The notes: a model not told the origin generated them from the letters alone. 64,000 bases of DNA from Promethearchaeota archaeon (GCA_048940445.1 JBHLON010000019.1:1-64000); one strand, 5' to 3'; numbered from the stretch's first letter, positions 54 through 12,571 are shown. Made by a program: numbers and translations.

Positions 54-1544
54 TTAATGGAAGACTGGCCTTCCTTTTTTATGAATAGCTACACCAAATA
101 CATCTTCTGCGGCTTCTAAAACCATTTCTGAAATAGTAGGATGACTGTGGATTACCTCTCCAACTTCATGAACTGTCAATCCATGGTGCATCGCTAAAGC
201 TATTTCTGCAATGAGTTCGGAAGCTTCAGCTCCGATACAGGATGCACCAATGATCTTATGAGTCTTATTATCAGCTAAAATCATTAAAAATCCCTCTTCA
301 TGACCAGCACACTTCGCTTTTCCTAATGATGCATAAGCAAATCTTCCCATAGCTACATCTATTCCTAAATCCTTTGCATGGCTTCTTCTCAATCCTACTG
401 AACCAATATTAGGTTTAGTAAATATCGTTGCTGGAATTACATGATAATCTGTTGTTCTCTCTTTTACTGGGAAATCTCCGATACTTGTTAGAGCGTTTGC
501 AACAGCCACATCTCCCATATAACTAGCTACATGTGCTAGCATTGGAGCACCTGAAGCCGCTACATCTCCAATCGCATAAATTCCCTTTATGGTCGTTTCA
601 GTTGTCTTAGTATCGATAGTAATAGCACCTCTTTGAATTTGAATTCCAAGATTTTCAAGCCCTAAATTTTGAGACTCTCTTGCTCGACCTATTGATACTA
701 AACAATAATCTGCTTCATAAAAGAATTTTTCAGCACTGTCGATTTGGTCTCTAGGGACATCAGCAGAACATGTAGTAGCTTTTACTCCGGATCCAGTATT
801 TTCAACAGATATTACATTTTGAGAAACATGTACCTTTATACCTAAATTAGTTAATTTCTTTTGTAATTCTTTTATAATCATCGGTTCTTCTGTAGCGATT
901 GGTGATGAAAGGAATTCTAAAATCTCTACTTTTGAGCCAAAAGTAGAAAATATGTTGGCAAATTCACAGCCTATAACCCCTGCTCCGATAATAAGCAATC
1001 GTTCAGGAACGATCTTAAAATCAGGATGAAGAATATCATCACTAGTTAGAATCCTATCATGATCTATATTGAAAGCTGGAATCATTGCGGGAGAAGACCC
1101 CGTAGCAATAATCACCCTTTTTGTCTTAATAGTTTTTGTTTCAGTTCCCTCAATTGATATTTCGAAACCTTTATCTGCGTTACCTCCAATAATTTTCCCA
1201 TACCCATTATATACGTCATTTTTCCAAGCTTTTTCTAAGCCAGCGATTCCCTCTACTAACTCTTGTACTACTTTATTTTTTCTCTCAACAGCCTTACCAA
1301 AATCTAATGTAGGATTACAAGAAATTCCGAATTCTTCTCCCTTTTCTTTTATCTCATGAACTAATTCAGCGGAAGCGTACAATGCTTTAGTTGGAATACA
1401 CCCCCAATTAAGACATGTACCACCTAATTTTGCTTTTTCGATTAAGGCAACTTTAGCGCCATATTGTGCAGCTCTAATAGCAGCATGATAACCACCTGGT
1501 CCAGCACCTATTATTGCTATATCATATAGTTCATTTTCACTCAT
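54..1544 (-). CDS. lpdA: Dihydrolipoamide dehydrogenase (E3)
   Basis: GAGPGG FAD motif, redox disulfide GGTCLNWGCIP, GAGVIG NAD motif, C-terminal HPTISE. Confidence 0.95.
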   Translation of the reverse strand: MSENELYDIAIIGAGPGGYHAAIRAAQYGAKVALIEKAKLGGTCLNWGCIPTKALYASAELVHEIKEKGEEFGISCNPTLDFGKAVERKNKVVQELVEGIAGLEKAWKNDVYNGYGKIIGGNADKGFEISIEGTETKTIKTKRVIIATGSSPAMIPAFNIDHDRILTSDDILHPDFKIVPERLLIIGAGVIGCEFANIFSTFGSKVEILEFLSSPIATEEPMIIKELQKKLTNLGIKVHVSQNVISVENTGSGVKATTCSADVPRDQIDSAEKFFYEADYCLVSIGRARESQNLGLENLGIQIQRGAITIDTKTTETTIKGIYAIGDVAASGAPMLAHVASYMGDVAVANALTSIGDFPVKERTTDYHVIPATIFTKPNIGSVGLRRSHAKDLGIDVAMGRFAYASLGKAKCAGHEEGFLMILADNKTHKIIGASCIGAEASELIAEIALAMHHGLTVHEVGEVIHSHPTISEMVLEAAEDVFGVAIHKKGRPVFH

Positions 1545-1676
1545 CTAAGAATTCACTTTCTAATTTTTTATGTATTCAAATCTTTTTAGATAATGATATT
1601 TAATTAAATTATACAACTAATTTTAAGTTTAATAAAACATATGGTATTGTTAAATATTTAGAGAGATTCTATTAAT

Positions 1677-3110
1677 ATGACTCAAAGGTTTATTAAGAAT
1701 TATGATCAATTATTATCTGAAGAATTACCGCAAAGATATAAAATTTTAAGAGAAATTGTACTTAATGCACTAGAAATAGCTATTATTTCTATTAAACCTG
1801 ATAAATTAATGCAAAAAGCAATCAAACTTAATAATAATAATTTAGTCATTAATGGAAAAGTCTTCGACCTTAATGATTACCATAAGATATATATAATTGG
1901 TGGGGGGAAAGCAACAGCAAGAATGGCACTTTTTTTAGAAAAAGTATTGGTAGATTATGGAGATATTGATTATGAAGGAATCATAAATGTTCCCGATAAT
2001 TTAAATTTAAAGGAAAAAGATTTTCCAAAGAAAATTGAACTCAATTTTGCATCACATCCTACTCCTGATGAGAGAGGTTTAAATGGAACAAAAACAATGA
2101 TACAAATGATAGAAAGAACTTCAGAAAATGATTTAATTATTTGTTTAATTTCAGGAGGCGGGTCTGCTCTATTACCTTTGCCAAAAGAAAACATATCCTT
2201 AAAAGATTTACAGAGTATAAGTTCATTATTACTAGCTTCTGGAGCATCGATTGATGAGTTTAACTCGATTCGGAAACATATATCTGATTTCAAAGGAGGA
2301 AATATAGCTAAGAAAGTATATGAATGCAGTGGAGCTACCCTAATTGCTTTAATAATGTCTGATGTTGTTGGTAACAAGCTAGATACTATTGCTTCAGGTC
2401 CTACTGTTCCAGATTCTACTACATATAAAGATGCCTACAAAATTTTAAAGAAATATAATTTAATAGAAAGAATTCCATCTTCAATTAAGGAAATAATTGA
2501 GGCAGGATTAAGTAATCCCGATTTAGAGAACCCTAAAAAAGAAGATATTTATTTCGGCAAGGTTTTTAACTTTTTAATTGGTAGTGTAGAAACTGCTGTC
2601 CAGGAAATTTCTAAATATTTTGATCAATTAGCAATTAGCTATAAGTATTTCTCTAGAAATATTATTGGAGAAGCAAGAGACTTTGCCTATAATCTCTATA
2701 AAATTATCTCAAATGAAGCAAAAACATTATCTACTAAAAAAAATATGAAAAAACGTATTGCTCTTTTAGGAACGGGGGAACTAACGGTAACTCTTAAGGG
2801 GAATGGGGTTGGTGGTAGAAATCAGGAATTACTACTTAGTTATTTAGATATTATAAGGAATAAAAATTTAGAATATGATTATGTTCTTTTAGCAGTAAAT
2901 CTTGATGGAATTGAAGGAAACAGTAAAGCCATGGGAGCTTTAATTGATAATTATTTAGTAAAACAAATAATCTATAAAAATGTTGATTTACAAGAATTTT
3001 TAATTAATAATAATTCAAATTCATTCTTTAAAATGGTTTGTTCTGAAATAGTTACAGGTTCAACTGGAAGCAATGTCAATGATTTAATTATAGCATTGCT
3101 TTCTATATAA
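1677..3110 (+). CDS. Glycerate kinase type 2 (MOFRL family)
   Basis: GGGKA, SHPTPD, LISGGGSAL, SDVVG, IASGPT, GGRNQE and TGSNVND motifs. Confidence 0.9.
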   Translation: MTQRFIKNYDQLLSEELPQRYKILREIVLNALEIAIISIKPDKLMQKAIKLNNNNLVINGKVFDLNDYHKIYIIGGGKATARMALFLEKVLVDYGDIDYEGIINVPDNLNLKEKDFPKKIELNFASHPTPDERGLNGTKTMIQMIERTSENDLIICLISGGGSALLPLPKENISLKDLQSISSLLLASGASIDEFNSIRKHISDFKGGNIAKKVYECSGATLIALIMSDVVGNKLDTIASGPTVPDSTTYKDAYKILKKYNLIERIPSSIKEIIEAGLSNPDLENPKKEDIYFGKVFNFLIGSVETAVQEISKYFDQLAISYKYFSRNIIGEARDFAYNLYKIISNEAKTLSTKKNMKKRIALLGTGELTVTLKGNGVGGRNQELLLSYLDIIRNKNLEYDYVLLAVNLDGIEGNSKAMGALIDNYLVKQIIYKNVDLQEFLINNNSNSFFKMVCSEIVTGSTGSNVNDLIIALLSI

Positions 3111-3131
3111 CATAAACATTAAGATAGAAAA

Positions 3132-3335
3132 ATGAGAGAAGATAAAGAAGGAATAAAGATTAAAGGAATAAATAACAATTTTATAAGAACCTGTCCCGTG
3201 TGTGGATATACTTTTAGAATCTTTGATCCTAAAACAAAGAAAAAGGTAACCATGTGCCCTATGTGCGGACATAAGTTTTTAGACCCAGATCTTAAACCAG
3301 ATGATAGGGATCAGTTGAAAAAAAGATTTTTCTAA
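3132..3335 (+). CDS. Small zinc-ribbon protein
   Basis: CPVCG...CPMCG in a 67-aa ORF. Confidence 0.75.
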   Translation: MREDKEGIKIKGINNNFIRTCPVCGYTFRIFDPKTKKKVTMCPMCGHKFLDPDLKPDDRDQLKKRFF

Positions 3336-3471
3336 GGAAAAAAAAATTTATTCTCTGAATTAGCGAAAAAATCTTTTTTAACTATCGTGTTTATATTTAT
3401 TTTACTAATCAAATATTTATTAGTCTATAAATAAATCAACTCACAAAAATGTAAATATAGGGAAATCTAAT

Positions 3472-5637
3472 ATGGCACGAAAGAAAGATAAGAAAAAACG
3501 AGAAGAAAGGCGAATGGGTTGGGATGCTACAGAAGCAGATGAAGCAAAGGTTGCTGAAGGTTTAAAAAGAACAGATATGGATGAAGGAAAAGTTCGATTA
3601 GTTGATAGAGATATATCTACTCCCGTAATAGAAACATATGACGCTGATACAGGAGCTCTTGAAGGATCGATTCTATTGAAGGATGGAAATCGTGAAGGTC
3701 TACTAGCATTAGTTAAAATTGTTGAAGATGTAAATACTGAACTTGACCATGATGGTAATATAGAAGCGATTAATTTTAAAGGTAAATTCAGTGTTGAGAA
3801 TCCCAGTAAAAAAGATAGATTATGGGATATAGATTTAAGCTTAAAAAACATTGATGAAACAAATTTAAAGTCAAAAGAATTAAACATTCGAGAATTAGGA
3901 ACTGACCCGGATACAAACGCAGAGACTCAAGATTTTTTAATTAAAGGGGAAGCAAAAAATCTTTTACTTATAAAAGAATATGTGAATACACTTCCTAATG
4001 CTGATGATGTGTTAAATATTAGGGATATCGAGAATGATTTAATGAAATTAAAAGATAAAAAGGCTAAAGCAGGTTCTGGTGTAAAGCAACGAAAAGTTGA
4101 AGTAGAGGAAGAAGAAGAAGAGGAAGAAGAAGATGAGGATGAAGAAGAAGATGAGGATGAAGAAGATAATGATACATATGATGTTGCTTCAACATCTTCA
4201 TTACAGTCCTTTGGCATTTCTATTGATAAGGAAAATACAGTCACATTTGCTATTGCAATGAGAAGTCTATTTGAAAAGACTATCTCAAATGTAAAGATGG
4301 TTAAAAGTATCCCAGATGATTTTAAAAATCCATCCGTTAGAGAAACAAACATTGGAAAAGCAGAAGTTGAAAATGGTAATGTTGTATGGAAAATTGAGAA
4401 ATTACCACCAGAAAGGACTGCTTTATTAAAGTTTACTTGCGATATAATGGTCACCGATATAACAAAAAGGAGAACAGGTCCAATAGAAGTAACATATGAA
4501 GGGTCATCTTCATTTGCGGGAGGTCTCGCTGTAGATAAATACGATGCATATTCTAGAAATAAATTTTATGTGGATACAGTAGAAAGAGATGAAGAACCGG
4601 GAGTCTGGGATTGTAAATTGGTATTTGAAAATCCATCTGAGTTTATATTCCAATTGTTTAATGCTGACGTCTATGCTCCCGATGATGAATCTACAAAATT
4701 CGTAGACATAGATCCACAAGACGTCCCATTGCTTCCTGCTGGAGCACAATGGCATTCCACTAAATGGCGATATGAATCTGAAGAATATCCGGCATTTAGA
4801 AAGAAACTCGAGTTTCGAGTTATGCCTGACTTTCAGACAATGGTAAACGGTACAATAGATATTTCTGATGTAATATTAGAAATCGCCAGTATTACCGGTG
4901 ATATGAAATATGATATTACACAAGTTCCGACATATAAAGAACAGGATGTAGAAACTACTCTAAAAATAATAAATAATGGTTCTGCTCCCTTAGATCAATT
5001 AATTATATCACAACAATACTTTACCAATGAATTTCAACCACCAGAGGCATCTGAAATCACAATGCTCTGGGATAATAAAGAAATTGAGTTATCATCTGGA
5101 GCAGTAAGTTTTGACGGGAGAATTTTTAGAATTAGCTTAAAAGATTTGAGAAATTCTGACACAGGAATGTTTGTACCAGAATCAAGTCTAGCATTTAAAT
5201 ATCCCATTCATTGTATAAACCCTGTCCAAGAATCTACTTTTGATTCTCAAATTGTATATAACGCAAATACGTATCCACTGTCTCAAGAATTAGAATTTAT
5301 GCCTGAGGTACCAATAATCGAAGCCTTACACTTGAGAAGAAAGTTCAGAATTGGAAAGGAAGTTTTACATATTGGTGACTTAGGGAATTATAAAATCATA
5401 TTAACAGTAGAAAATATAGGTACTGCACCTCTCCAAAACATGATTTTGATGGATAAAGTGCCTGATCAATTTGAATACGGTACATATAGCGAAAAACCAG
5501 AAATAACTGACGAAGTAGGGGAAGATACTCTAAAATGGACTATTGATTTATTAAATGCTGGAGAAAAAGTAGAAATAACATATGAGATAAATGGTACTGG
5601 TGAATATAGTCCAAGTGATGCTCAGCTTGGATTATAG
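3472..5637 (+). CDS. Acidic cytoplasmic beta-sandwich protein with putative mu-homology domain (adaptor medium subunit/delta-COP-like) and C-terminal Ig-like domains
   Basis: Segments VKIVEDVNTELDHDGNIEAINFKGKF, NVKMVKSIPDDFKNP..IGKAEVENGNVVWKIEKLPP and GPIEVTYE..AGGLAV resemble MHD strands in order; no signal peptide. The ORF is certain, the fold call is by eye. Confidence 0.6.
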   Translation: MARKKDKKKREERRMGWDATEADEAKVAEGLKRTDMDEGKVRLVDRDISTPVIETYDADTGALEGSILLKDGNREGLLALVKIVEDVNTELDHDGNIEAINFKGKFSVENPSKKDRLWDIDLSLKNIDETNLKSKELNIRELGTDPDTNAETQDFLIKGEAKNLLLIKEYVNTLPNADDVLNIRDIENDLMKLKDKKAKAGSGVKQRKVEVEEEEEEEEEDEDEEEDEDEEDNDTYDVASTSSLQSFGISIDKENTVTFAIAMRSLFEKTISNVKMVKSIPDDFKNPSVRETNIGKAEVENGNVVWKIEKLPPERTALLKFTCDIMVTDITKRRTGPIEVTYEGSSSFAGGLAVDKYDAYSRNKFYVDTVERDEEPGVWDCKLVFENPSEFIFQLFNADVYAPDDESTKFVDIDPQDVPLLPAGAQWHSTKWRYESEEYPAFRKKLEFRVMPDFQTMVNGTIDISDVILEIASITGDMKYDITQVPTYKEQDVETTLKIINNGSAPLDQLIISQQYFTNEFQPPEASEITMLWDNKEIELSSGAVSFDGRIFRISLKDLRNSDTGMFVPESSLAFKYPIHCINPVQESTFDSQIVYNANTYPLSQELEFMPEVPIIEALHLRRKFRIGKEVLHIGDLGNYKIILTVENIGTAPLQNMILMDKVPDQFEYGTYSEKPEITDEVGEDTLKWTIDLLNAGEKVEITYEINGTGEYSPSDAQLGL
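4098..4170 (+). repeat. GAA/GAG/GAT low-complexity tract encoding poly-Glu/Asp
   Basis: Encodes EVEEEEEEEEEDEDEEEDEDEEDN. Confidence 0.9.
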
Positions 5638-5799
5638 TTTTTCTTTTATTCTTTATCTATTATTTTTTTTTATAATCTTTTTAAAATCAAAAGCATTAAT
5701 TAGATTTAGAATACGTTCAATTATATTTTTAAAATTAGAAACGCATTTATTATCAATGGTTCTATATTAATTAATTCTATCATATTAAAAACTTAGAAT

Positions 5800-7476
5800 A
5801 TGTCCGCTCTTAATAAAAATTTTAACTTAAACTGGATGTTTGAAGCTCCTGAGGCTGTTTTAACATGCTCAACTCTGAGATGTGAAGACAAATGTTATTT
5901 AGTATTTGGTGGACACGATAAGACCTTATACTTAATGGATGACGAGTTAAATATTCTTGATAGCATCACTTTTGATGGATGGGTAAGAACTACGTATCCC
6001 ATTGATATTACTGGAGATGGATGTGATGAGATTCTTGTTGGAGCTGGTGATGGAAATTTCTTAGTGGTAAAATTCGTTAAAGGTATAAATAAATTAGCAG
6101 GAATAATGAATTTTAAGACTAAGGGTAAAGTTTTATGCGTAACTGCTGGGGATTTCACCAGAGACGGAAATGTTGAGCTAATTTATGGGGGAGAAGATAA
6201 GACTCTCAAAATTTTTAAGAATATAGACGCAACAGACCCTCAATTTACACTCTATTATGATTCTTGGGTGACAGCATGTAATATAGATTATTTAAAGTTA
6301 CCAAAAGTAGAATTTCCTATTAATGGATTGTTAGTTGGAACAAAAAATGGGTTACTCCAATTAATTCAATCTATTGAAAGCAAACCAGATATAATTTGGC
6401 AGAAAGATCTCGGATCTCAGATTAATGCTATTCAAATCGGTGACGTAACTAATGATGGATATCATGAAATAGTAGTTGGTTCTGATGATTCTACCATCTC
6501 AATCTTTAACAGTGAAGGTGAGAGCTTAAAAATTATAAATATTGAAGAAGGTCGTCCAGTTTCATTAAAAATTGCAGATATTGATGGAGATAAAGCGAAT
6601 GAAATCCTTGTAGGATGTGCTGATGGGTCCTTAAGAATCTATCATAACACAAAATTAGATTCAACTGATATTGAGTTAAAATGGAAAACATCAAGCTCAA
6701 CTTCAATAAAAATAGTATCAACTATGCCAAATCCAGAAGCAGAGTCACCAAATATTATATTTGGTGGTTATGACAGGAGTATTCGATGTATAAATGATCT
6801 TGAGTGTGGAGAAAAACCTGTTTTAGAAATACCACAAACAGTTGATACATCTGAACAACAAGGATCACCAGCAGAGGAATCTCCTGAAAAAACTCTCAAA
6901 TTAGAAATAGTTCCTACAAATATTAGAGAATTTATTTTTAAAGATTTAATTGATAAAAAGATCATTCAAGAAATTGCTAATGATTTAGAAAAAAGAGGCT
7001 ATCTTAAAGATAGAGTTATTGAAGAATTTGAGAAGATGATTACTGAGAAACAAGATAAATTTGAAAAAGTTACCTATTCTATTTGGACTTTACCTGAAGA
7101 TAAAATTGGTTTAGGAGGGGCTGTAGGAGCTCCTGTCAAAAAGAGCAAAAAGATAACACCTATTGTAATTGAACAGGAGGCCGAGAAACCTAAAGGTGAG
7201 GCATTAATTGATGCTTTGACTAAAGAAACAGAAAAAGAGAGTCCGAAAAATGCAAGAGCCCCACAAGGGACAATAACAGAAGAAAACTTAAGAACAATTA
7301 TCATTCATCATTTAGAAAAAAATAGAATTATTCCAACAAAGACTAAATTTATCGAAGATATTGTCATTTTAGGATATGACAAGGATTTAGTAGAGACACA
7401 AATTGATTTATTAAAAAATCAAGGAATTATTGCCTATTCTCGATCAGATCCAAAAGGATGGTATTTATCTAATTAG
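5800..7476 (+). CDS. FG-GAP/WD40-like beta-propeller protein (BBS2/ITFG-like repeats) with C-terminal winged-helix-like region
   Basis: Repeats DITGDGCDEILVG, DFTRDGNVELIYGGED, DVTNDGYHEIVVGSDD, DIDGDKANEILVGCAD; no signal peptide. Confidence 0.75.
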   Translation: MSALNKNFNLNWMFEAPEAVLTCSTLRCEDKCYLVFGGHDKTLYLMDDELNILDSITFDGWVRTTYPIDITGDGCDEILVGAGDGNFLVVKFVKGINKLAGIMNFKTKGKVLCVTAGDFTRDGNVELIYGGEDKTLKIFKNIDATDPQFTLYYDSWVTACNIDYLKLPKVEFPINGLLVGTKNGLLQLIQSIESKPDIIWQKDLGSQINAIQIGDVTNDGYHEIVVGSDDSTISIFNSEGESLKIINIEEGRPVSLKIADIDGDKANEILVGCADGSLRIYHNTKLDSTDIELKWKTSSSTSIKIVSTMPNPEAESPNIIFGGYDRSIRCINDLECGEKPVLEIPQTVDTSEQQGSPAEESPEKTLKLEIVPTNIREFIFKDLIDKKIIQEIANDLEKRGYLKDRVIEEFEKMITEKQDKFEKVTYSIWTLPEDKIGLGGAVGAPVKKSKKITPIVIEQEAEKPKGEALIDALTKETEKESPKNARAPQGTITEENLRTIIIHHLEKNRIIPTKTKFIEDIVILGYDKDLVETQIDLLKNQGIIAYSRSDPKGWYLSN

Positions 7477-7480
7477 TTTT

Positions 7481-7918
7481 TTAAATAAGAAAACTTTCAA
7501 TCTCTTTTTTGAAGGAGTGAAATTGACTTAATTCTGTAAAATCTTTATTTTGAAACCTTGATATAAACAATTGTAAGATAATTTGAAACTTGCTAAGAAA
7601 TTTTTTCACAATTTTGTCAGTATCTCTCTTTTTCTTATCTATTAGACCGTATAGAATTATAGGTTCTGGTTCATGGCAATCAGAAGTTTTAATTTCGGAA
7701 GCTTTGAATATAAATAGAATGTTATTAGATTCAAGGTATTCTAAAGTTAGATTATTAAAAGCATTCTTTGCAAAAGTATCTATTGCTGAAATAAATGCTC
7801 CTCTTAAATCCTTGCTCCCTTCACTAAAATTATCTTGCTCATCCAATATCTCGGAAGTATAGTTTACTAAAACAAATCCTCTAAAAACTATTCCGAGTTC
7901 ATAAAGACCTTTCATCAT
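7481..7918 (-). CDS. Longin-like domain protein
   Basis: 145 aa; beta-beta-alpha-beta-beta-beta-alpha pattern with DLRGAFISAIDTFAK helix and C-terminal F..F...I, typical of Asgard longins. Confidence 0.65.
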   Translation of the reverse strand: MMKGLYELGIVFRGFVLVNYTSEILDEQDNFSEGSKDLRGAFISAIDTFAKNAFNNLTLEYLESNNILFIFKASEIKTSDCHEPEPIILYGLIDKKKRDTDKIVKKFLSKFQIILQLFISRFQNKDFTELSQFHSFKKEIESFLI

Positions 7919-8043
7919 TCCCTAAAATGTTAGATTAAATGGCTAGACTATAAAATTAGAAAAAATTTTCATATTTAATTTTAAACTAAATTCCTAATGA
8001 ACTACTCCTCCAATAGAAAAAATAAGTTTTAAAAATTTTTAAA

Positions 8044-8847
8044 TCAGTTATCTCTTTTCTTTAATACTATAGCTTCTTCTGGGCATTTATTAACACATAT
8101 CCCGCATCCAAAACATAGATTCGATTTAAATTCTAATTTTTTATTGATTACTCTTGCTCCAAAATAACACCATCTTGAACATATTCCACAATTTTTACAT
8201 TTATTTAAGTTAGTTTCAGCAATAAAATCACTTTTAATAATTTGAGGACTTCCCATTTTTAAAAACTTGCTCAGAACAATACAACAGCATGGACAGCAAT
8301 TACAAATCACATAATAATAAAAAGGATTTGGGAAGAATATGATCTGATGTATCAAACCCCTATCTTCAAATTTGATTAAAAGTTGTTTAACACGTTTCTT
8401 AGAAATCTCTCTTAAGTTTTCGGACTTGAACGGTATTTCATGTAGAGAATTCCCATACGATAAATGTATGCAAGTATTTAGAGGATGAGTACAATTTGCA
8501 GTAATTTCGTGCTTTCTTTGTGTATCTCTACAATAACAAGTAGCAAGACCCACAATATTAGACCTACTTATTAATTCTAATATCTCCTGAGATGGAAGAA
8601 ATTTAACATGAGAATCAATACTTTGAGATATTGGAATTACTCTTCCACCCCATTTGGCTTTAAATATGTACTTAATTACAAAATTAAGCGAATTAATATG
8701 AAAAATTTTTCCAGTTAAACGAAGAAACTCTAAAATATAATATTCCAAAAATCCAAAAATTGAGGAGAATAATTTACCTAAGACTCTAATCCTGATAGTA
8801 ATTAAATCAAAAAATGCTTGATTTCTTCTTCGCTTTAAAATACTCAA
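8044..8847 (-). CDS. 4Fe-4S ferredoxin-domain protein
   Basis: CYCR, ICNCCPCCC and two CxxCxxCxxxC motifs. Confidence 0.85.
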   Translation of the reverse strand: MSILKRRRNQAFFDLITIRIRVLGKLFSSIFGFLEYYILEFLRLTGKIFHINSLNFVIKYIFKAKWGGRVIPISQSIDSHVKFLPSQEILELISRSNIVGLATCYCRDTQRKHEITANCTHPLNTCIHLSYGNSLHEIPFKSENLREISKKRVKQLLIKFEDRGLIHQIIFFPNPFYYYVICNCCPCCCIVLSKFLKMGSPQIIKSDFIAETNLNKCKNCGICSRWCYFGARVINKKLEFKSNLCFGCGICVNKCPEEAIVLKKRDN

Positions 8848-8937
8848 TTTTAAACGATTTTAGAAGATTAATTTAGCTTCAAAAAATATTTAACAAATAT
8901 TAATTGTTATGCTTTTTTTCCAAAAAATAGGATCAAA

Positions 8938-9480
8938 ATGAATCACAATAATAAGTTTTTAGGATTTGGTCTTTTTACAATATTGATTTTTATGCTTCCT
9001 ACCTGTTTTTTGGGAAATTTCCCAATTGTTGGAAAATCAAATAATCTAGATTTAAGATTAAACGATTTTGATGATATTTTTGGTGAAATCTTTATAATAA
9101 GGCCATCAAGTTCAGATATTTTAAAAATAGGGGAAAATTTTACTATTAAATGGGAGTATAAGGGTTCGATTGACCTAGTTTCAATCGCATTATATAATGG
9201 AATTAATTTTTTCCATATGATTGCTATAGTAACAATTAATGATGGTGAATATTCATGGTTTATTGCTAATTATACTGAATCAAATGATTATTCAATAGGA
9301 ATTTGGGATTATAATGATTTTAATAATAATGATTTTAGTGAATTTTTTACAATTACATCCCTTTCAAATAATAATTTAAATCATTTGATTTATCTACTGA
9401 TTGGACTCTTTCTTAGTATCCCATTAATCAGTGTCCTATATTACCTGATAAAATTAAGAAAACCTTCTCTTTCAGTATAA
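8938..9480 (+). CDS. Secreted, C-terminally anchored protein with a Ser/Thr-rich GPI-anchored-family-like Ig domain
   Basis: N-terminal hydrophobic segment; GENFTIKW..V.I.LY..NDGEYSW..Y.I..SEFFTI pattern; C-terminal TM plus basic tail. Confidence 0.65.
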   Translation: MNHNNKFLGFGLFTILIFMLPTCFLGNFPIVGKSNNLDLRLNDFDDIFGEIFIIRPSSSDILKIGENFTIKWEYKGSIDLVSIALYNGINFFHMIAIVTINDGEYSWFIANYTESNDYSIGIWDYNDFNNNDFSEFFTITSLSNNNLNHLIYLLIGLFLSIPLISVLYYLIKLRKPSLSV

Positions 9481-9556
9481 AAGTGGAAATTAAAAGTTTT
9501 TAAATTATTAAATTCTTATTTAAATTATTCTAAAAAAATTATCAATTTGAAATAGC

Positions 9557-9805
9557 ATGTCTTCTGAAGAAGAATCTTCTCGCTTTTGTCCCTATTGTGG
9601 TATAGAGTTAACCCACCCCTATTGGGTTCACGTTCAGAAGGAACATCCAGAGAAATATAGTCAGAAGCAAACCTGGATTAAACTATATGAGGATTATAGG
9701 AAGTTAGGGATGGATCAAGACATTAGTCTTACTGTGATTTCTGAACTCTTCAATGCAACTACAGAAGAAGTGAAATCCTTTTTGAGGAATGCAAAAGTAT
9801 TGTAA
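9557..9805 (+). CDS. Small C2H2-type zinc-finger protein
   Basis: CPYC-x8-HVQKEH. Confidence 0.7.
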   Translation: MSSEEESSRFCPYCGIELTHPYWVHVQKEHPEKYSQKQTWIKLYEDYRKLGMDQDISLTVISELFNATTEEVKSFLRNAKVL

Positions 9806-9861
9806 ATCACGTAATTATTTAATGGAAATTAAAATAAATATAAAAAAAGATATAAGTCAAG

Positions 9862-10152
9862 CTAAAAATCTTCTTCGTCTTCTTCTAAAAATCCCGCCTG
9901 TTTTAATAAATCCTCAACAGAATCACGAGCTTTCATTACTTGTTCATTATCCGTTAATTTTAGATTTTCCAGAACAGAATCAGAAAATTCCATGAACTTT
10001 TTGATAGATTGTGAGGAAAAGTCTTTTATTTTTTCAGATGTTTCTTCAATAAAATCCTTTCCACTTTCACCGAATGCTCCTCCTACAAAATCTACAAATG
10101 CATCATTAAGTTTGTCCAATAGATTTTTTTTCTTTTCTCCTTGTTCATTCAT
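9862..10152 (-). CDS. Hypothetical acidic helical protein
   Basis: 96-aa ORF with ATG start and coding-like composition. Confidence 0.6.
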   Translation of the reverse strand: MNEQGEKKKNLLDKLNDAFVDFVGGAFGESGKDFIEETSEKIKDFSSQSIKKFMEFSDSVLENLKLTDNEQVMKARDSVEDLLKQAGFLEEDEEDF

Positions 10153-10275
10153 TTTTTACTTACCTTTTGAATTCATTTTGATATATTTTAAAAAATAAAT
10201 ACATAGATGTTAAATAATTTTTTGAAATCCTTAATCATGTTTTTCATATTATTTCGTTTTTATTAAATTAGTAAT

Positions 10276-10839
10276 TCATGATTTCAGCAATTCACCAAAA
10301 TTATTAGCAAAATCTTTGATTTGGTCCCAATCTCTATAATCATGCTTTCTACCCTCTGGATTCTCAATTCCTTCCTCATTCTTCATAATACTGATAACAA
10401 TTTTGCGGGTTATACCAGTTAGAGGAGATCCTTCAGTTAAATCATAACATCCCCCAAATGCATCAATTAAGGCTGGCTTTATTCCTAAACTTTGCAATTT
10501 AGAGGTTATATATGAATTTATTGCACTATTTATTTTACTTTTCTCCGCCGCTTCTCCACAACACACATAGAATCCCAATTTAGTTTGACAATTAATTAAT
10601 TCCGATTTCCTCTTTTGCATAAATTTCTTAACACTTTTAGTCCACTTTTTCATTTTAATGCTGGTGCCTATTATAATACCATCGTAATTCTCTAGAAGTG
10701 GAATTTCTTTGGAATTATGTTCATCTAAATCATAACTTTCAGCAGTATTTCCCCCTTTTTGGATTATTTTCTGGATCTCGTTTGAGATTTCTTTAGTCGT
10801 TCCATATCTGGTTCCATATAACATTAAAACTTTACTCAT
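10276..10839 (-). CDS. Flavodoxin-domain protein (HemG-like)
   Basis: LYGTRYGTTKEI FMN loop and DYRDWDQI; probable start is ATG 10839 (MSKVL). Confidence 0.85.
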   Translation of the reverse strand: MSKVLMLYGTRYGTTKEISNEIQKIIQKGGNTAESYDLDEHNSKEIPLLENYDGIIIGTSIKMKKWTKSVKKFMQKRKSELINCQTKLGFYVCCGEAAEKSKINSAINSYITSKLQSLGIKPALIDAFGGCYDLTEGSPLTGITRKIVISIMKNEEGIENPEGRKHDYRDWDQIKDFANNFGELLKS

Positions 10840-11083
10840 AACAATCCCAAATTTTAGATTGAATTCTAAATATCTTATTTTAAAAGTTATTGGCACTATT
10901 TAAATAAATTGAAGACCATTTTTAGAATATTTTAGTTTCTAGATTAATTCTTTTCGTTTCCATCTTTATAGATTATGTTTATTATATTTAAGCAATCCAC
11001 AATAAATTACTTTATTATCTTCTCGGAATATTTTATTTTACATTTTAATTTGATGTAATCTTTTTAAAAATAAGGAAAAACAT

Positions 11084-12571
11084 ATGAGTGAGAATCATTT
11101 CCTCCATGGCTTTTTAAACCCTAAAAGTATTGCTTTTTACGGGGCTAATAATGATGGAAATTCATTAGGATCTCTTCAAATTATGAATTTAGTCATGTCA
11201 GGATACCAGGGTAAAGTCTTTCCAATCCACTTAAAATTAGAATATGTTATGGGGTATAAAGCTTATAAATCTATTCAAGATATTCCACAGATACCTGAAT
11301 TAGTAGTAATTGTTCTTCCTGCTACGATTGTCCCTCAAATTTTTAAAGAGTGTGGAGAAAAAGGAGTTAAAAGAATAATTTTAATTTCAGGTGGATTTCG
11401 TGAGTTAATTGGACAACGTAAAAATAACCTTACTGAAGAAATTAATAATATAGCTAAAGAGTATGGAATTAGATTTATTGGCCCAAACTGCCTAGGTGTA
11501 TTTAATAATTGGTACAGACCAGAAGAAGGAAAGAAATCATTCAATATTTTTATTTGGGAAAATCTAAAAAGGAGTAAATTTTCTATAGCCTCTCAAAGTG
11601 GGACACTCTCCTGCCATATATGGTGGGATCCTCTCAATTTAGATTTAGGTTTGAGCAGATCATTGTCCCTTGGAAATGAAGCAAATGTAGATATAGTAGA
11701 TTGTTTAGAGTATTATAAAGATGATAAATATACTGAAATAATAGGTTTATACGTTGAAGAGATCAAAAGAGGACGAAAATTCTTGAAATTAGCAAAAGAA
11801 ATCACTCCAAAAAAGCCAATTATCGCAATATATAGTGGTGGTACTAATGCTGGTAATCGTGCTTTACAAAGCCATACAGGATCCTTAGCAGGTAGTTCTA
11901 AAATTTATGAAAGTGTTTTTAAGCAGGTAGGGATAATAAATACAGATTATGTACAAGAATTTCTAGATATTGCTTTGATTTTTTCAAAAGGAATATTACC
12001 TAAGGGAGACAGATTAGGCATCATTACGAATTCGGGAGGCCCAGGAGTAATGGTGGCAAATAACGCAGAAAAACATGGCGTATTAATTCCAGAATTTTCA
12101 GAATCACTCCAAAAAGAGTTAAAAGAGATGCTTCCCTCTACAGCAAGTACTAAGAATCCTGTAGACTGTACATTTGATGTAACCTTCTCAAAATTTTATA
12201 TAAATTTACCGGAAATATTAATGAAATCAGGAGAAATAGACGCACTTATCCAATATGGAGTATACGGATTCCAAGATATTTTGGATAAGTATTTTAAATA
12301 TGATAGAATAGTTAAAAATGCTAAATTTCAACAGTTACCTGAAGAAAAAGTTATTAAATTAGCTCAAAACTTAATCCAACCAACAATTATAAATTCTAAA
12401 AAGTATTCGATTCCAATCTTATATGTAAATCCAATGAATCTAAATAGCCAGTGGTCAAAAATTTTACGTGATAACGGAGCAATATTATTTAAGTTATGGG
12501 ATCGCCCAGTAAATGCATTAGCTAAAATTGTGGATTATGTTAGATTTATTAATAAATTTAAAACTGGATGA
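11084..12571 (+). CDS. Acyl-CoA synthetase (NDP-forming), alpha-type CoA-binding protein
   Basis: PKSIA..GA, IGPNCLG, SQSG, SHTGSLAG phospho-His motif, TNSGGPG, NPVD. Confidence 0.9.
   Translation: MSENHFLHGFLNPKSIAFYGANNDGNSLGSLQIMNLVMSGYQGKVFPIHLKLEYVMGYKAYKSIQDIPQIPELVVIVLPATIVPQIFKECGEKGVKRIILISGGFRELIGQRKNNLTEEINNIAKEYGIRFIGPNCLGVFNNWYRPEEGKKSFNIFIWENLKRSKFSIASQSGTLSCHIWWDPLNLDLGLSRSLSLGNEANVDIVDCLEYYKDDKYTEIIGLYVEEIKRGRKFLKLAKEITPKKPIIAIYSGGTNAGNRALQSHTGSLAGSSKIYESVFKQVGIINTDYVQEFLDIALIFSKGILPKGDRLGIITNSGGPGVMVANNAEKHGVLIPEFSESLQKELKEMLPSTASTKNPVDCTFDVTFSKFYINLPEILMKSGEIDALIQYGVYGFQDILDKYFKYDRIVKNAKFQQLPEEKVIKLAQNLIQPTIINSKKYSIPILYVNPMNLNSQWSKILRDNGAILFKLWDRPVNALAKIVDYVRFINKFKTG

Follow-up and report, generated by a model that had tools for sequence, protein, structure and literature searches.

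A mu-homology domain protein and its beta-propeller gene partner in a Promethearchaeota locus: a conserved two-gene pair with a longin-fold neighbor

Introduction

In the AP, COPI, TSET, muniscin and stonin adaptors, cargo and lipids are read by the mu-homology domain (MHD), which is generally treated as a eukaryotic invention. The eukaryotic mu and delta-COP subunits each join a longin domain to an MHD; in COPI and TSET, subunits with an MHD are found together with propeller subunits. Here we analyze a window of 64,000 nt of DNA from a Lokiarchaeia-type Promethearchaeota archaeon (GCA_048940445.1 JBHLON010000019.1:1-64000; coordinates are positions in this window) in which four neighboring open reading frames (ORFs) encode a 67-aa Zn-ribbon protein, a 721-aa MHD protein (P0002), a 558-aa beta-propeller protein (P0003) and a 145-aa longin-fold protein (P0004). 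A preliminary description of this DNA had proposed that the locus may encode unfused components of a proto-coat. We find that the 721-aa protein contains a full MHD and that its gene is kept close to the propeller gene across two families of one order, whereas the longin gene is a neighbor of the pair in only one of them.

As the preliminary description stated, adaptor-related domains have been reported in Asgard archaea: Eme et al. 2023 (PMC10307638) list candidates matching the Pfam model PF00928, with a sparse distribution drawn from Pfam hits and with PF00928 never fused to Clat_adaptor_s. The passages of that paper found by keyword contain no fold verification, no partner gene and no relation to DUF11 repeats. 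The MHD protein as such is already a published eukaryotic signature protein (ESP) candidate and is no new discovery, and a BBS7/ITFG2 structural cluster of Asgard and eukaryotic proteins has likewise been catalogued among the ESPs (bioRxiv 10.64898/2026.10.28.762692). To the published list the present analysis adds the complete fold, presence in most of the sampled Asgard genomes, a propeller partner gene in one order and a sequence kinship with prokaryotic DUF11 repeats.

Results

The 721-aa protein contains a complete mu-homology domain

Scanned as a whole, the 721-aa protein matched PF00928 (Adap_comp_sub) at 33.5 bits over residues 253-364, above the cut-off of 31.6. Its gene gave the only match to this model in the whole home genome, and 14 control genomes gave none. 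A phmmer search of the PDB sequences with the protein alone returned no match. When a profile of 94 family members was run against all PDB sequences, the best matches were AP-3 mu (E 3.8e-4) and AP-2 mu; the top matches were all AP mu C-terminal domains, and no other kind of protein scored above them.

The AlphaFold2 (AF2) model of the protein, made from the family alignment, has a mean predicted local distance difference test score (pLDDT) of 89.6, is disordered only at residues 9-14 and 207-240, and is all-beta, in agreement with the earlier "beta-rich" call. Foldseek matched it to the MHDs of mu2 and mu1 with a target-normalised TM-score of 0.6-0.67; multi-Ig chains that crowded the Foldseek list were set aside as domain-array artefacts, with a root-mean-square deviation (rmsd) of ~40 Å. 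VIA-align placed residues 74-466 of the model onto residues 168-435 of mu2, which is the entire MHD (Z 17.0, rmsd 3.5-3.9 Å, 228 residues), and also aligned the model with mu1, mu3 and mu4 (Z 14.8-15.4) and with delta-COP (Z 14.3-14.4). Across the AP-1 to AP-4 mu and delta-COP MHDs (7ofp, 5wrk, 4en2, 4ikn, 3l81, 4o8q), the two-sandwich fold is shared in the same chain order over ~210-228 residues, at Z 14-17. The N-terminal part of the domain is also common to the family, since N110 never varies among the 94 members and conservation reaches at least 90% at E85, G104 and E169. We conclude from sequence homology and predicted fold together that the protein holds a full MHD and is a genuine archaeal homolog of the AP mu/delta-COP domain. 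The preliminary description had called the protein MHD-like and had suggested a fold comparison; the PF00928 match above cut-off bears out the call, and the comparison, by Foldseek and VIA-align, returned the mu and delta-COP MHDs.

From its N-terminus the protein consists of a polybasic tail, the MHD with an acidic disordered loop, and two Ig/DUF11-like sandwiches. The first 20 residues carry a median net charge of +5 across 114 orthologs. In the acidic loop pLDDT falls below 50 over residues 207-240, 24 of the 35 residues from 206 to 240 are Asp or Glu, and close orthologs have an acidic window at the same position. Residues 471-621 aligned with pilin domains of BcpA, RrgB and SpaD (VIA-align, Z 13.6-14). 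There is no longin domain in the protein: residues 1-73 are modeled as one helix and two short strands and have no Clat_adaptor_s match, and a Pfam scan of eight longer family members found neither a longin nor a propeller domain. The protein thus resembles AP mu at the level of sequence, through the PF00928 score above cut-off and the AP-3 and AP-2 mu profile matches, and differs from AP mu and delta-COP in lacking the N-terminal longin and in having the ~35-residue acidic insert, the two Ig/DUF11-like domains and the polybasic tail. Also unlike the situation for AP mu, no adaptin genes lie near it (ten ORFs, 54-12571).

A 312-aa paralog in the home genome (G000:C104:36626-37564; L044:7626-8564) matches residues 78-172 and 255-428 of the MHD protein, thereby covering the MHD region without the acidic loop or the Ig tail. 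Its context is unrelated, with genes for an ICMT/PEMT-like membrane methyltransferase and a DJ-1/PfpI protein as neighbors. Separately, two of the 94 family members (P0384 and P0391) have hydrophobic N-termini resembling signal peptides, which raises the possibility that a small number of relatives are exported, like typical DUF11 proteins, or anchored in the membrane.

The adjacent gene encodes a predicted cytosolic beta-propeller

The 558-aa protein matched the Pfam models Beta-prop_BBS7 (84 bits, cut-off 27), BBS2_Mid (52 bits), Itfg2 and FG-GAP. By itself it matched the PDB sequences of ITFG2, BBS2 and BBS7 in phmmer, and a profile of eight orthologs ranked ITFG2 (E 1.6e-13) before BBS7 (8.9e-7) and BBS2 (3.6e-5); the match of this profile to kaptin (E 2.5) was not significant. 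The similarity is partly class-level, because the BBS2_Mid and FG-GAP models also match bacterial FG-GAP proteins. Judged by these sequence comparisons, which uphold the earlier beta-propeller call, the protein is an FG-GAP-type cytosolic propeller closest to ITFG2 (of KICSTOR), BBS7 and BBS2.

Beyond the propeller, the ortholog alignment reveals a charged linker and then two repeated modules of ~60 aa, with a conserved motif of the YSRSxPRGW type at their ends. For this C-terminus Pfam gave nothing significant and the protein-atlas scores (at most 0.86) offered winged-helix leads only; the two modules, within the C-terminal ~190 residues, are weakly indicated to be winged-helix-like. The protein thus differs from BBS2, BBS7 and BBS9, which end in GAE, platform and helical domains, none of which had a Pfam match here. 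It also differs from ITFG2 and the BBSome proteins in that no kaptin-like or BBSome partner came up for it, no search for kaptin having been made.

MHD and propeller genes stay together across an order

To describe gene order we refer to the home family (f1) and its sister family (f2; 14 genomes in 7 genera), with genera given g-numbers and loci and genomes L- and G-numbers; organism names of relatives (e.g. Promethearchaeota, Lokiarchaeota) are database labels only. In ~51 of 69 home-family genomes the MHD gene has the propeller gene as its direct neighbor, and in ~47 of those ~51 a convergent longin gene follows the pair (a count from coordinates). Synteny within this family spans the whole block, from genes for a pyridine-nucleotide oxidoreductase and a glycerate-kinase-like protein through to one for an Fe-S protein. 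Because these unrelated metabolic flank genes are equally syntenic, gene order at this level is weak evidence of a functional link.

Gene loss and the sister family separate the pair from its surroundings. The MHD and the propeller gene are both absent from eleven home-family genomes of 82-100% completeness, namely those of genera g3 and g4 and three of the five from g6. The flanks persist where the two genes were lost, and the longin gene is kept in all 11; at the g3 and g4 loci that were fetched it directly adjoins the genes that used to flank the pair, and no Zn-ribbon gene is left there either. In the sister family the two genes lie at most 1.5 kb apart in nine genomes and ~5.4 kb apart in one, while three of the remainder are broken by contig ends and one has no MHD gene. 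The pair is therefore close together in 10 of 10 assessable genomes, across six of the seven genera, in convergent orientation in most and in tandem in one. Eleven flank genes from the window were tested by BLAST and none was found in the three sister-family loci checked. A longin gene was looked for beside the sister-family pair and none was found; longin relatives in these genomes are on other contigs or were not found at all. Literature searches returned no published account of a conserved MHD-propeller gene pair. Of the conserved neighborhood in related genomes that the preliminary description had anticipated, the MHD-propeller part is kept in both families, and the longin part only within the home family.

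Other genes accompany the pair in some sister-family loci. Between the convergent propeller and MHD genes of genera g11 and g73 there is a small conserved ORF of 85-106 aa (L021:9242-9538, L022:3632-3952, L046:6542-6799) with no informative family match. Among loci L023, L047, L048, L050, L051 and L052, a paralog of TFIIB (TFB) precedes the propeller gene in five, and a gene for a gelsolin-repeat protein, another ESP family, is beside the pair in five sister-family loci, four of them shared with the TFB loci.

The MHD family is widespread among sampled Asgard genomes

Searched with the 721-aa protein, 244 of the 301 genomes that sample the phylum gave a match, mostly to ORFs of ~600-750 aa aligned over residues ~245-718. 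The PF00928 model reached E <=1e-3 in 55 of the same 301 genomes and its cut-off in 13. In Table S3 of Eme et al. 2023 (PMC10307638), a Jordarchaeia candidate carries short conserved motifs of the P0002 family when compared by eye, and the PF00928 candidates of that study are apparently this same family. Since the Pfam model finds 55 genomes and the family query 244, the sparse published distribution is most simply explained by limited sensitivity of the model. Near-universality of the family among the sampled Asgard genomes, as opposed to sparseness, is new here at the level of sequence matches.

Several home-family genomes have an additional PF00928-positive ORF of ~690-713 aa at another locus (G189:C1:49601-49960, G270:C115, G243:C134, G147:C102, G213:C45, G135:C68), which was not seen in the home genome. 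At loci of families f9, f21 and f10, all outside the order, a same-strand Lactamase_B_3 gene of 229-235 aa (L031:8488-9186, L032:8379-9068, L034:4968-5675) precedes a distant MHD-like gene of ~600 aa.

The 145-aa protein has a longin fold and a distribution of its own

The AF2 model of the 145-aa protein (pLDDT 77.8) has the topology bb-a-bbb-a-a. In a VIA-align comparison with 48,161 chains the leading matches were sedlin (2j3w, Z 11.8), synbindin (10.6), Sec22 (10.5) and a Lokiarchaeota longin domain (8yqg, 10.2); AP mu-N and sigma scored at Z ~10, VAMP7, SRX and Mon1/Ccz1 fell within Z 8-11.8, and coverage was near full length. Almost all of the best ~40 structural matches were longin domains, and the model also resembles Lokiarchaeota Rag C-terminal domains, LAMTOR, Lst4 and FLCN. 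Foldseek returned weak E-values only. At the level of sequence the protein alone had no Pfam or PDB match, 40 family members had no Longin, Clat_adaptor_s, Sedlin_N or Robl_LC7-type Pfam match at E <=1, and the family profile found no longin among the PDB sequences. The model therefore indicates a longin fold without membership in a longin sequence family, and the topology and the top structural matches justify the earlier longin-like call. Like the known longins with which it was compared (TRAPPC2/sedlin, synbindin, Sec22, VAMP7, AP sigma/mu-N and the Lokiarchaeota roadblock-longin 8yqg), the protein matches over its full length at Z 10-11.8; unlike them, it falls outside the longin sequence families, stands alone, and is largely limited to one archaeal family. 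As a query it was found in all 68 home-family genomes and, in weak matches throughout, in five of 232 genomes outside that family.

Nearly every home-family genome also has a second longin paralog of ~33% identity, which in the home genome (G000:C59:26947-27342; L045:6885-7349) lies in an unrelated context, between genes for deoxyhypusine synthase and an M29 peptidase.

The middle sandwich of the MHD is related to DUF11 repeats

The whole MHD protein matched DUF11 (PF01345) at 39.9 bits (cut-off 24.6), with residues 635-706 as the best stretch, and its C-terminal DUF11 domain scanned alone still passed at 25.1 bits. Residues 250-370 scanned alone, which correspond to PF00928 profile positions 123-241, matched two models over the same stretch: PF00928 at 36.1 bits (E 5.7e-9) and DUF11 at 21.8 bits (E 2.5e-4), the latter just under the DUF11 cut-off. 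The stretch corresponding to this middle sandwich in six more remote members of the family, as located by query-to-hit coordinates, scored 28.7-44.6 bits against DUF11. When the middle-sandwich slice was compared with the C-terminal DUF11 slice by hhalign, the probability was 97.8% (E 9e-13, 72 columns), where pairwise hhalign E-values are not calibrated against a database and the slices are of the Asgard family, not of eukaryotic MHDs. The pilin-like sandwich (471-621) and the DUF11 domain (625-715) aligned with a probability of 96.4%. These comparisons suggest that an array of DUF11-type repeats surrounds the archaeal MHD and makes up part of it, which would amount to a prokaryotic route to a eukaryotic domain. 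We found no published MHD-DUF11 link in literature searches, and the kinship, as detected by these profile matches, is new here.

Layout and gene status of the locus

The positions of the four genes and of the parts of the MHD protein are collected in Table 1. The four ORFs lie exactly where they were first described, with a gap of 4 bp (7477-7480) between the stop codons of the convergent propeller and longin genes. The region is AT-rich (GC ~27-35%); in the spacer between the MHD and propeller genes, the MHD stop is followed by long T runs and the propeller start is preceded by TATA-like runs. Database homologs at 60-92% identity number in the hundreds for the 721-aa protein and likewise for the 145-aa protein; they come from metagenome bins labeled Promethearchaeota or Lokiarchaeota and from a handful of differently labeled, probably mislabeled bins. 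Orthologs of the propeller protein in related genomes are 40-86% identical. The four ORFs are real, conserved genes and not chance frames. DNA of the locus was detected in mangrove and sediment metagenomes. No signal-like or transmembrane hydrophobic segment was found in any of the four proteins (Kyte-Doolittle, 19-residue windows; maximum mean <=1.28), in line with the assignment of the 721-aa and propeller proteins to the cytoplasm in the preliminary description.

Table 1. Features of the locus, in window coordinates
Feature	Position	Strand	Evidence
Zn-ribbon protein, 67 aa, directly 5' of MHD gene	3132-3335	+	ORF and translation; two CxxC pairs
721-aa MHD-Ig protein (P0002)	3472-5637	+	ORF; PF00928 and DUF11 matches; AF2 model
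MHD, P0002 residues 74-466	3691-4869	+	VIA-align of AF2 model
Disordered poly-Glu/Asp loop inside MHD, ~residues 205-240	4084-4191	+	pLDDT and composition
Middle beta-sandwich of MHD, residues 250-370	4219-4581	+	PF00928 and DUF11 matches
Two Ig-like domains: pilin-type sandwich (471-621) and DUF11 domain (625-715)	4882-5616	+	VIA-align, Pfam, hhalign
AT-rich spacer, 162 nt, MHD stop to propeller start	5638-5799		Read from sequence
558-aa FG-GAP-type beta-propeller protein (P0003), propeller ~residues 1-340	5800-7476	+	Pfam; profile against PDB sequences
145-aa stand-alone longin-fold protein (P0004)	7481-7918	-	AF2 model, VIA-align

The Zn-ribbon protein has Pfam Zn-ribbon matches that are all below threshold. 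Its gene was found by tblastn just 5' of the MHD gene in 18 of 19 other g1 loci fetched and in a single locus each of g2 and g6; tblastn did not detect it in g5, g7 and g8 or in the loci without MHD and propeller genes.

Beyond the four genes, window positions 8938-9480 encode a 180-aa Kre9/KNH-like Ig-domain protein that begins and ends with hydrophobic segments and is probably secreted or anchored at the cell surface. At 9557-10198 there is a head-to-tail series of three short, overlapping ORFs (82, 68 and 68 aa); the first of them (82 aa) is conserved near the locus across the home family at 50-61% identity.

Discussion

We judge with moderate confidence that the locus holds a conserved two-gene MHD-propeller module together with two local neighbors, and not a complete coat. 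For the longin and, probably, the Zn-ribbon protein, the association is one of local neighborhood, limited to one family or to a few genera, and neither need be a subunit. According to this reading the MHD and propeller proteins would act together, probably as a complex. By analogy with eukaryotic MHDs, the MHD-Ig protein may be a cytosolic peripheral-membrane or motif-binding adaptor whose polybasic tail and MHD could contact anionic lipids or short linear motifs, and the propeller-winged-helix protein may serve as an interaction scaffold or platform.

Several observations weigh against such a module. MHD-like genes outside the order have no propeller-family neighbor, and in three families there (f9, f10 and f21) they adjoin a metallo-beta-lactamase-fold gene; two genomes, G135 (99% complete) and G285 (89%), have the propeller without an MHD ortholog; and no MHD-propeller fusion was found among the eight long MHD-family members or among longer propeller homologs, the latter search being weak evidence. 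The spacers in the locus, of 136 nt and 162 nt, contain T runs, and together with the TATA-like runs this makes separate MHD and propeller transcripts probable as far as the DNA sequence can indicate. As to the proposed binding of motifs, Lys82 of the MHD protein apparently lies opposite Asp176 of mu2, one of the residues (F174, D176, W421 and R423) of the tyrosine-motif pocket of mu2; this placement has low weight, as it rests on the VIA-align offset (74 = 168) and a short mu2 motif. If it is right, the pocket Asp of AP mu is not conserved and canonical YxxPhi binding would be doubtful.

One could take the lack of linkage outside the order, the two propeller-only genomes, the probable presence of a separate promoter and terminator for each gene, the generally well-kept gene order of the home family and the fact that the 721-aa protein is largely a DUF11-type repeat array to mean that there is no functional link at all: the adjacency would be a slowly decaying ancestral order, and the 721-aa product would be a lone cytosolic structural or binding protein built of DUF11 repeats. 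We think this unlikely, because the pair survives in at least three arrangements and in six of seven sister-family genera without the tested home-family flank genes, because both genes are missing together in three genera, and because chance adjacency of two low-copy families would be expected in ~1% of genomes of 3-6 Mb (a rough, uncomputed estimate). The opposite reading, that MHD, propeller and longin proteins, and possibly the Zn-ribbon protein as well, form one adaptor- or coat-like complex with the longin in the role of mu-N or sigma, can draw on the confirmation of all three folds, on the collinearity of the four genes in ~47 home-family genomes, and on the general precedent of the eukaryotic longin-MHD subunits and of the MHD and propeller subunits in COPI and TSET. 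It nevertheless seems to us improbable. The longin is retained in all 68 home-family genomes, including the 11 without the MHD and propeller genes, and its sister-family relatives are on other contigs or were not found; it is convergent and so not co-transcribed with the other two genes, it shares its synteny in the home family with unrelated metabolic flanks, and it has no sequence affinity to Clat_adaptor_s. Neither an adaptin-type solenoid nor an Arf-like GTPase was found among the ten ORFs scanned at 54-12571, adaptins not having been searched for genome-wide.

A different use of the same proteins would be a signaling scaffold, in which an ITFG2-like propeller and the longin belong to a Rag/GATOR/KICSTOR-like system and the MHD protein is accessory. 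ITFG2 of KICSTOR is indeed the best PDB sequence match of the propeller profile, the longin model resembles Rag C-terminal domains of Lokiarchaeota as well as LAMTOR, Lst4 and FLCN, and solved structures exist for Lokiarchaeota Rag-like GTPases. However, BBS7 and BBS2 score comparably to ITFG2, part of the similarity is shared with bacterial FG-GAP proteins, the kaptin match is not significant, no Rag-like GTPase gene was found among the ten ORFs at 54-12571, and the linkage of the longin is weak; we hold this explanation, too, to be a long shot.

The two-gene module that we favor is like TSET/TPLATE and COPI in that MHD and propeller proteins occur together, here as presumptive partners by gene linkage. 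In those complexes the propellers are of the WD40 kind, each joined in one chain to an alpha-solenoid, and there are in addition adaptin-type large subunits and sigma/zeta longins, none of which is linked here; compared with the heterotetrameric adaptors and coats (AP, the COPI F-subcomplex and TSET), the small longin is not co-conserved with the MHD protein. The proposal of "unfused components of a proto-coat" was right about the MHD, propeller and longin folds and found a partner gene in its support, and it overstates the case because the longin is unlinked in the sister family and no adaptin or Arf-like gene lies among the ten ORFs scanned at 54-12571. Three coat-type folds side by side do not make a proto-coat.

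A wider idea is that the MHD-propeller pair is what remains of the core of a membrane or cargo adaptor older than eukaryotes, and that the MHD itself was assembled in archaea from DUF11-type repeats, as its middle sandwich is still recognizable as a DUF11 unit. We put this idea forward tentatively and regard it as rather doubtful at present. The pair offers a testable two-protein system, for mutual binding, membrane binding and motif recognition. If this wider idea were true, it would give a concrete prokaryotic origin to the cargo-binding domain of AP, COPI and TSET, together with an ancestral propeller partner.

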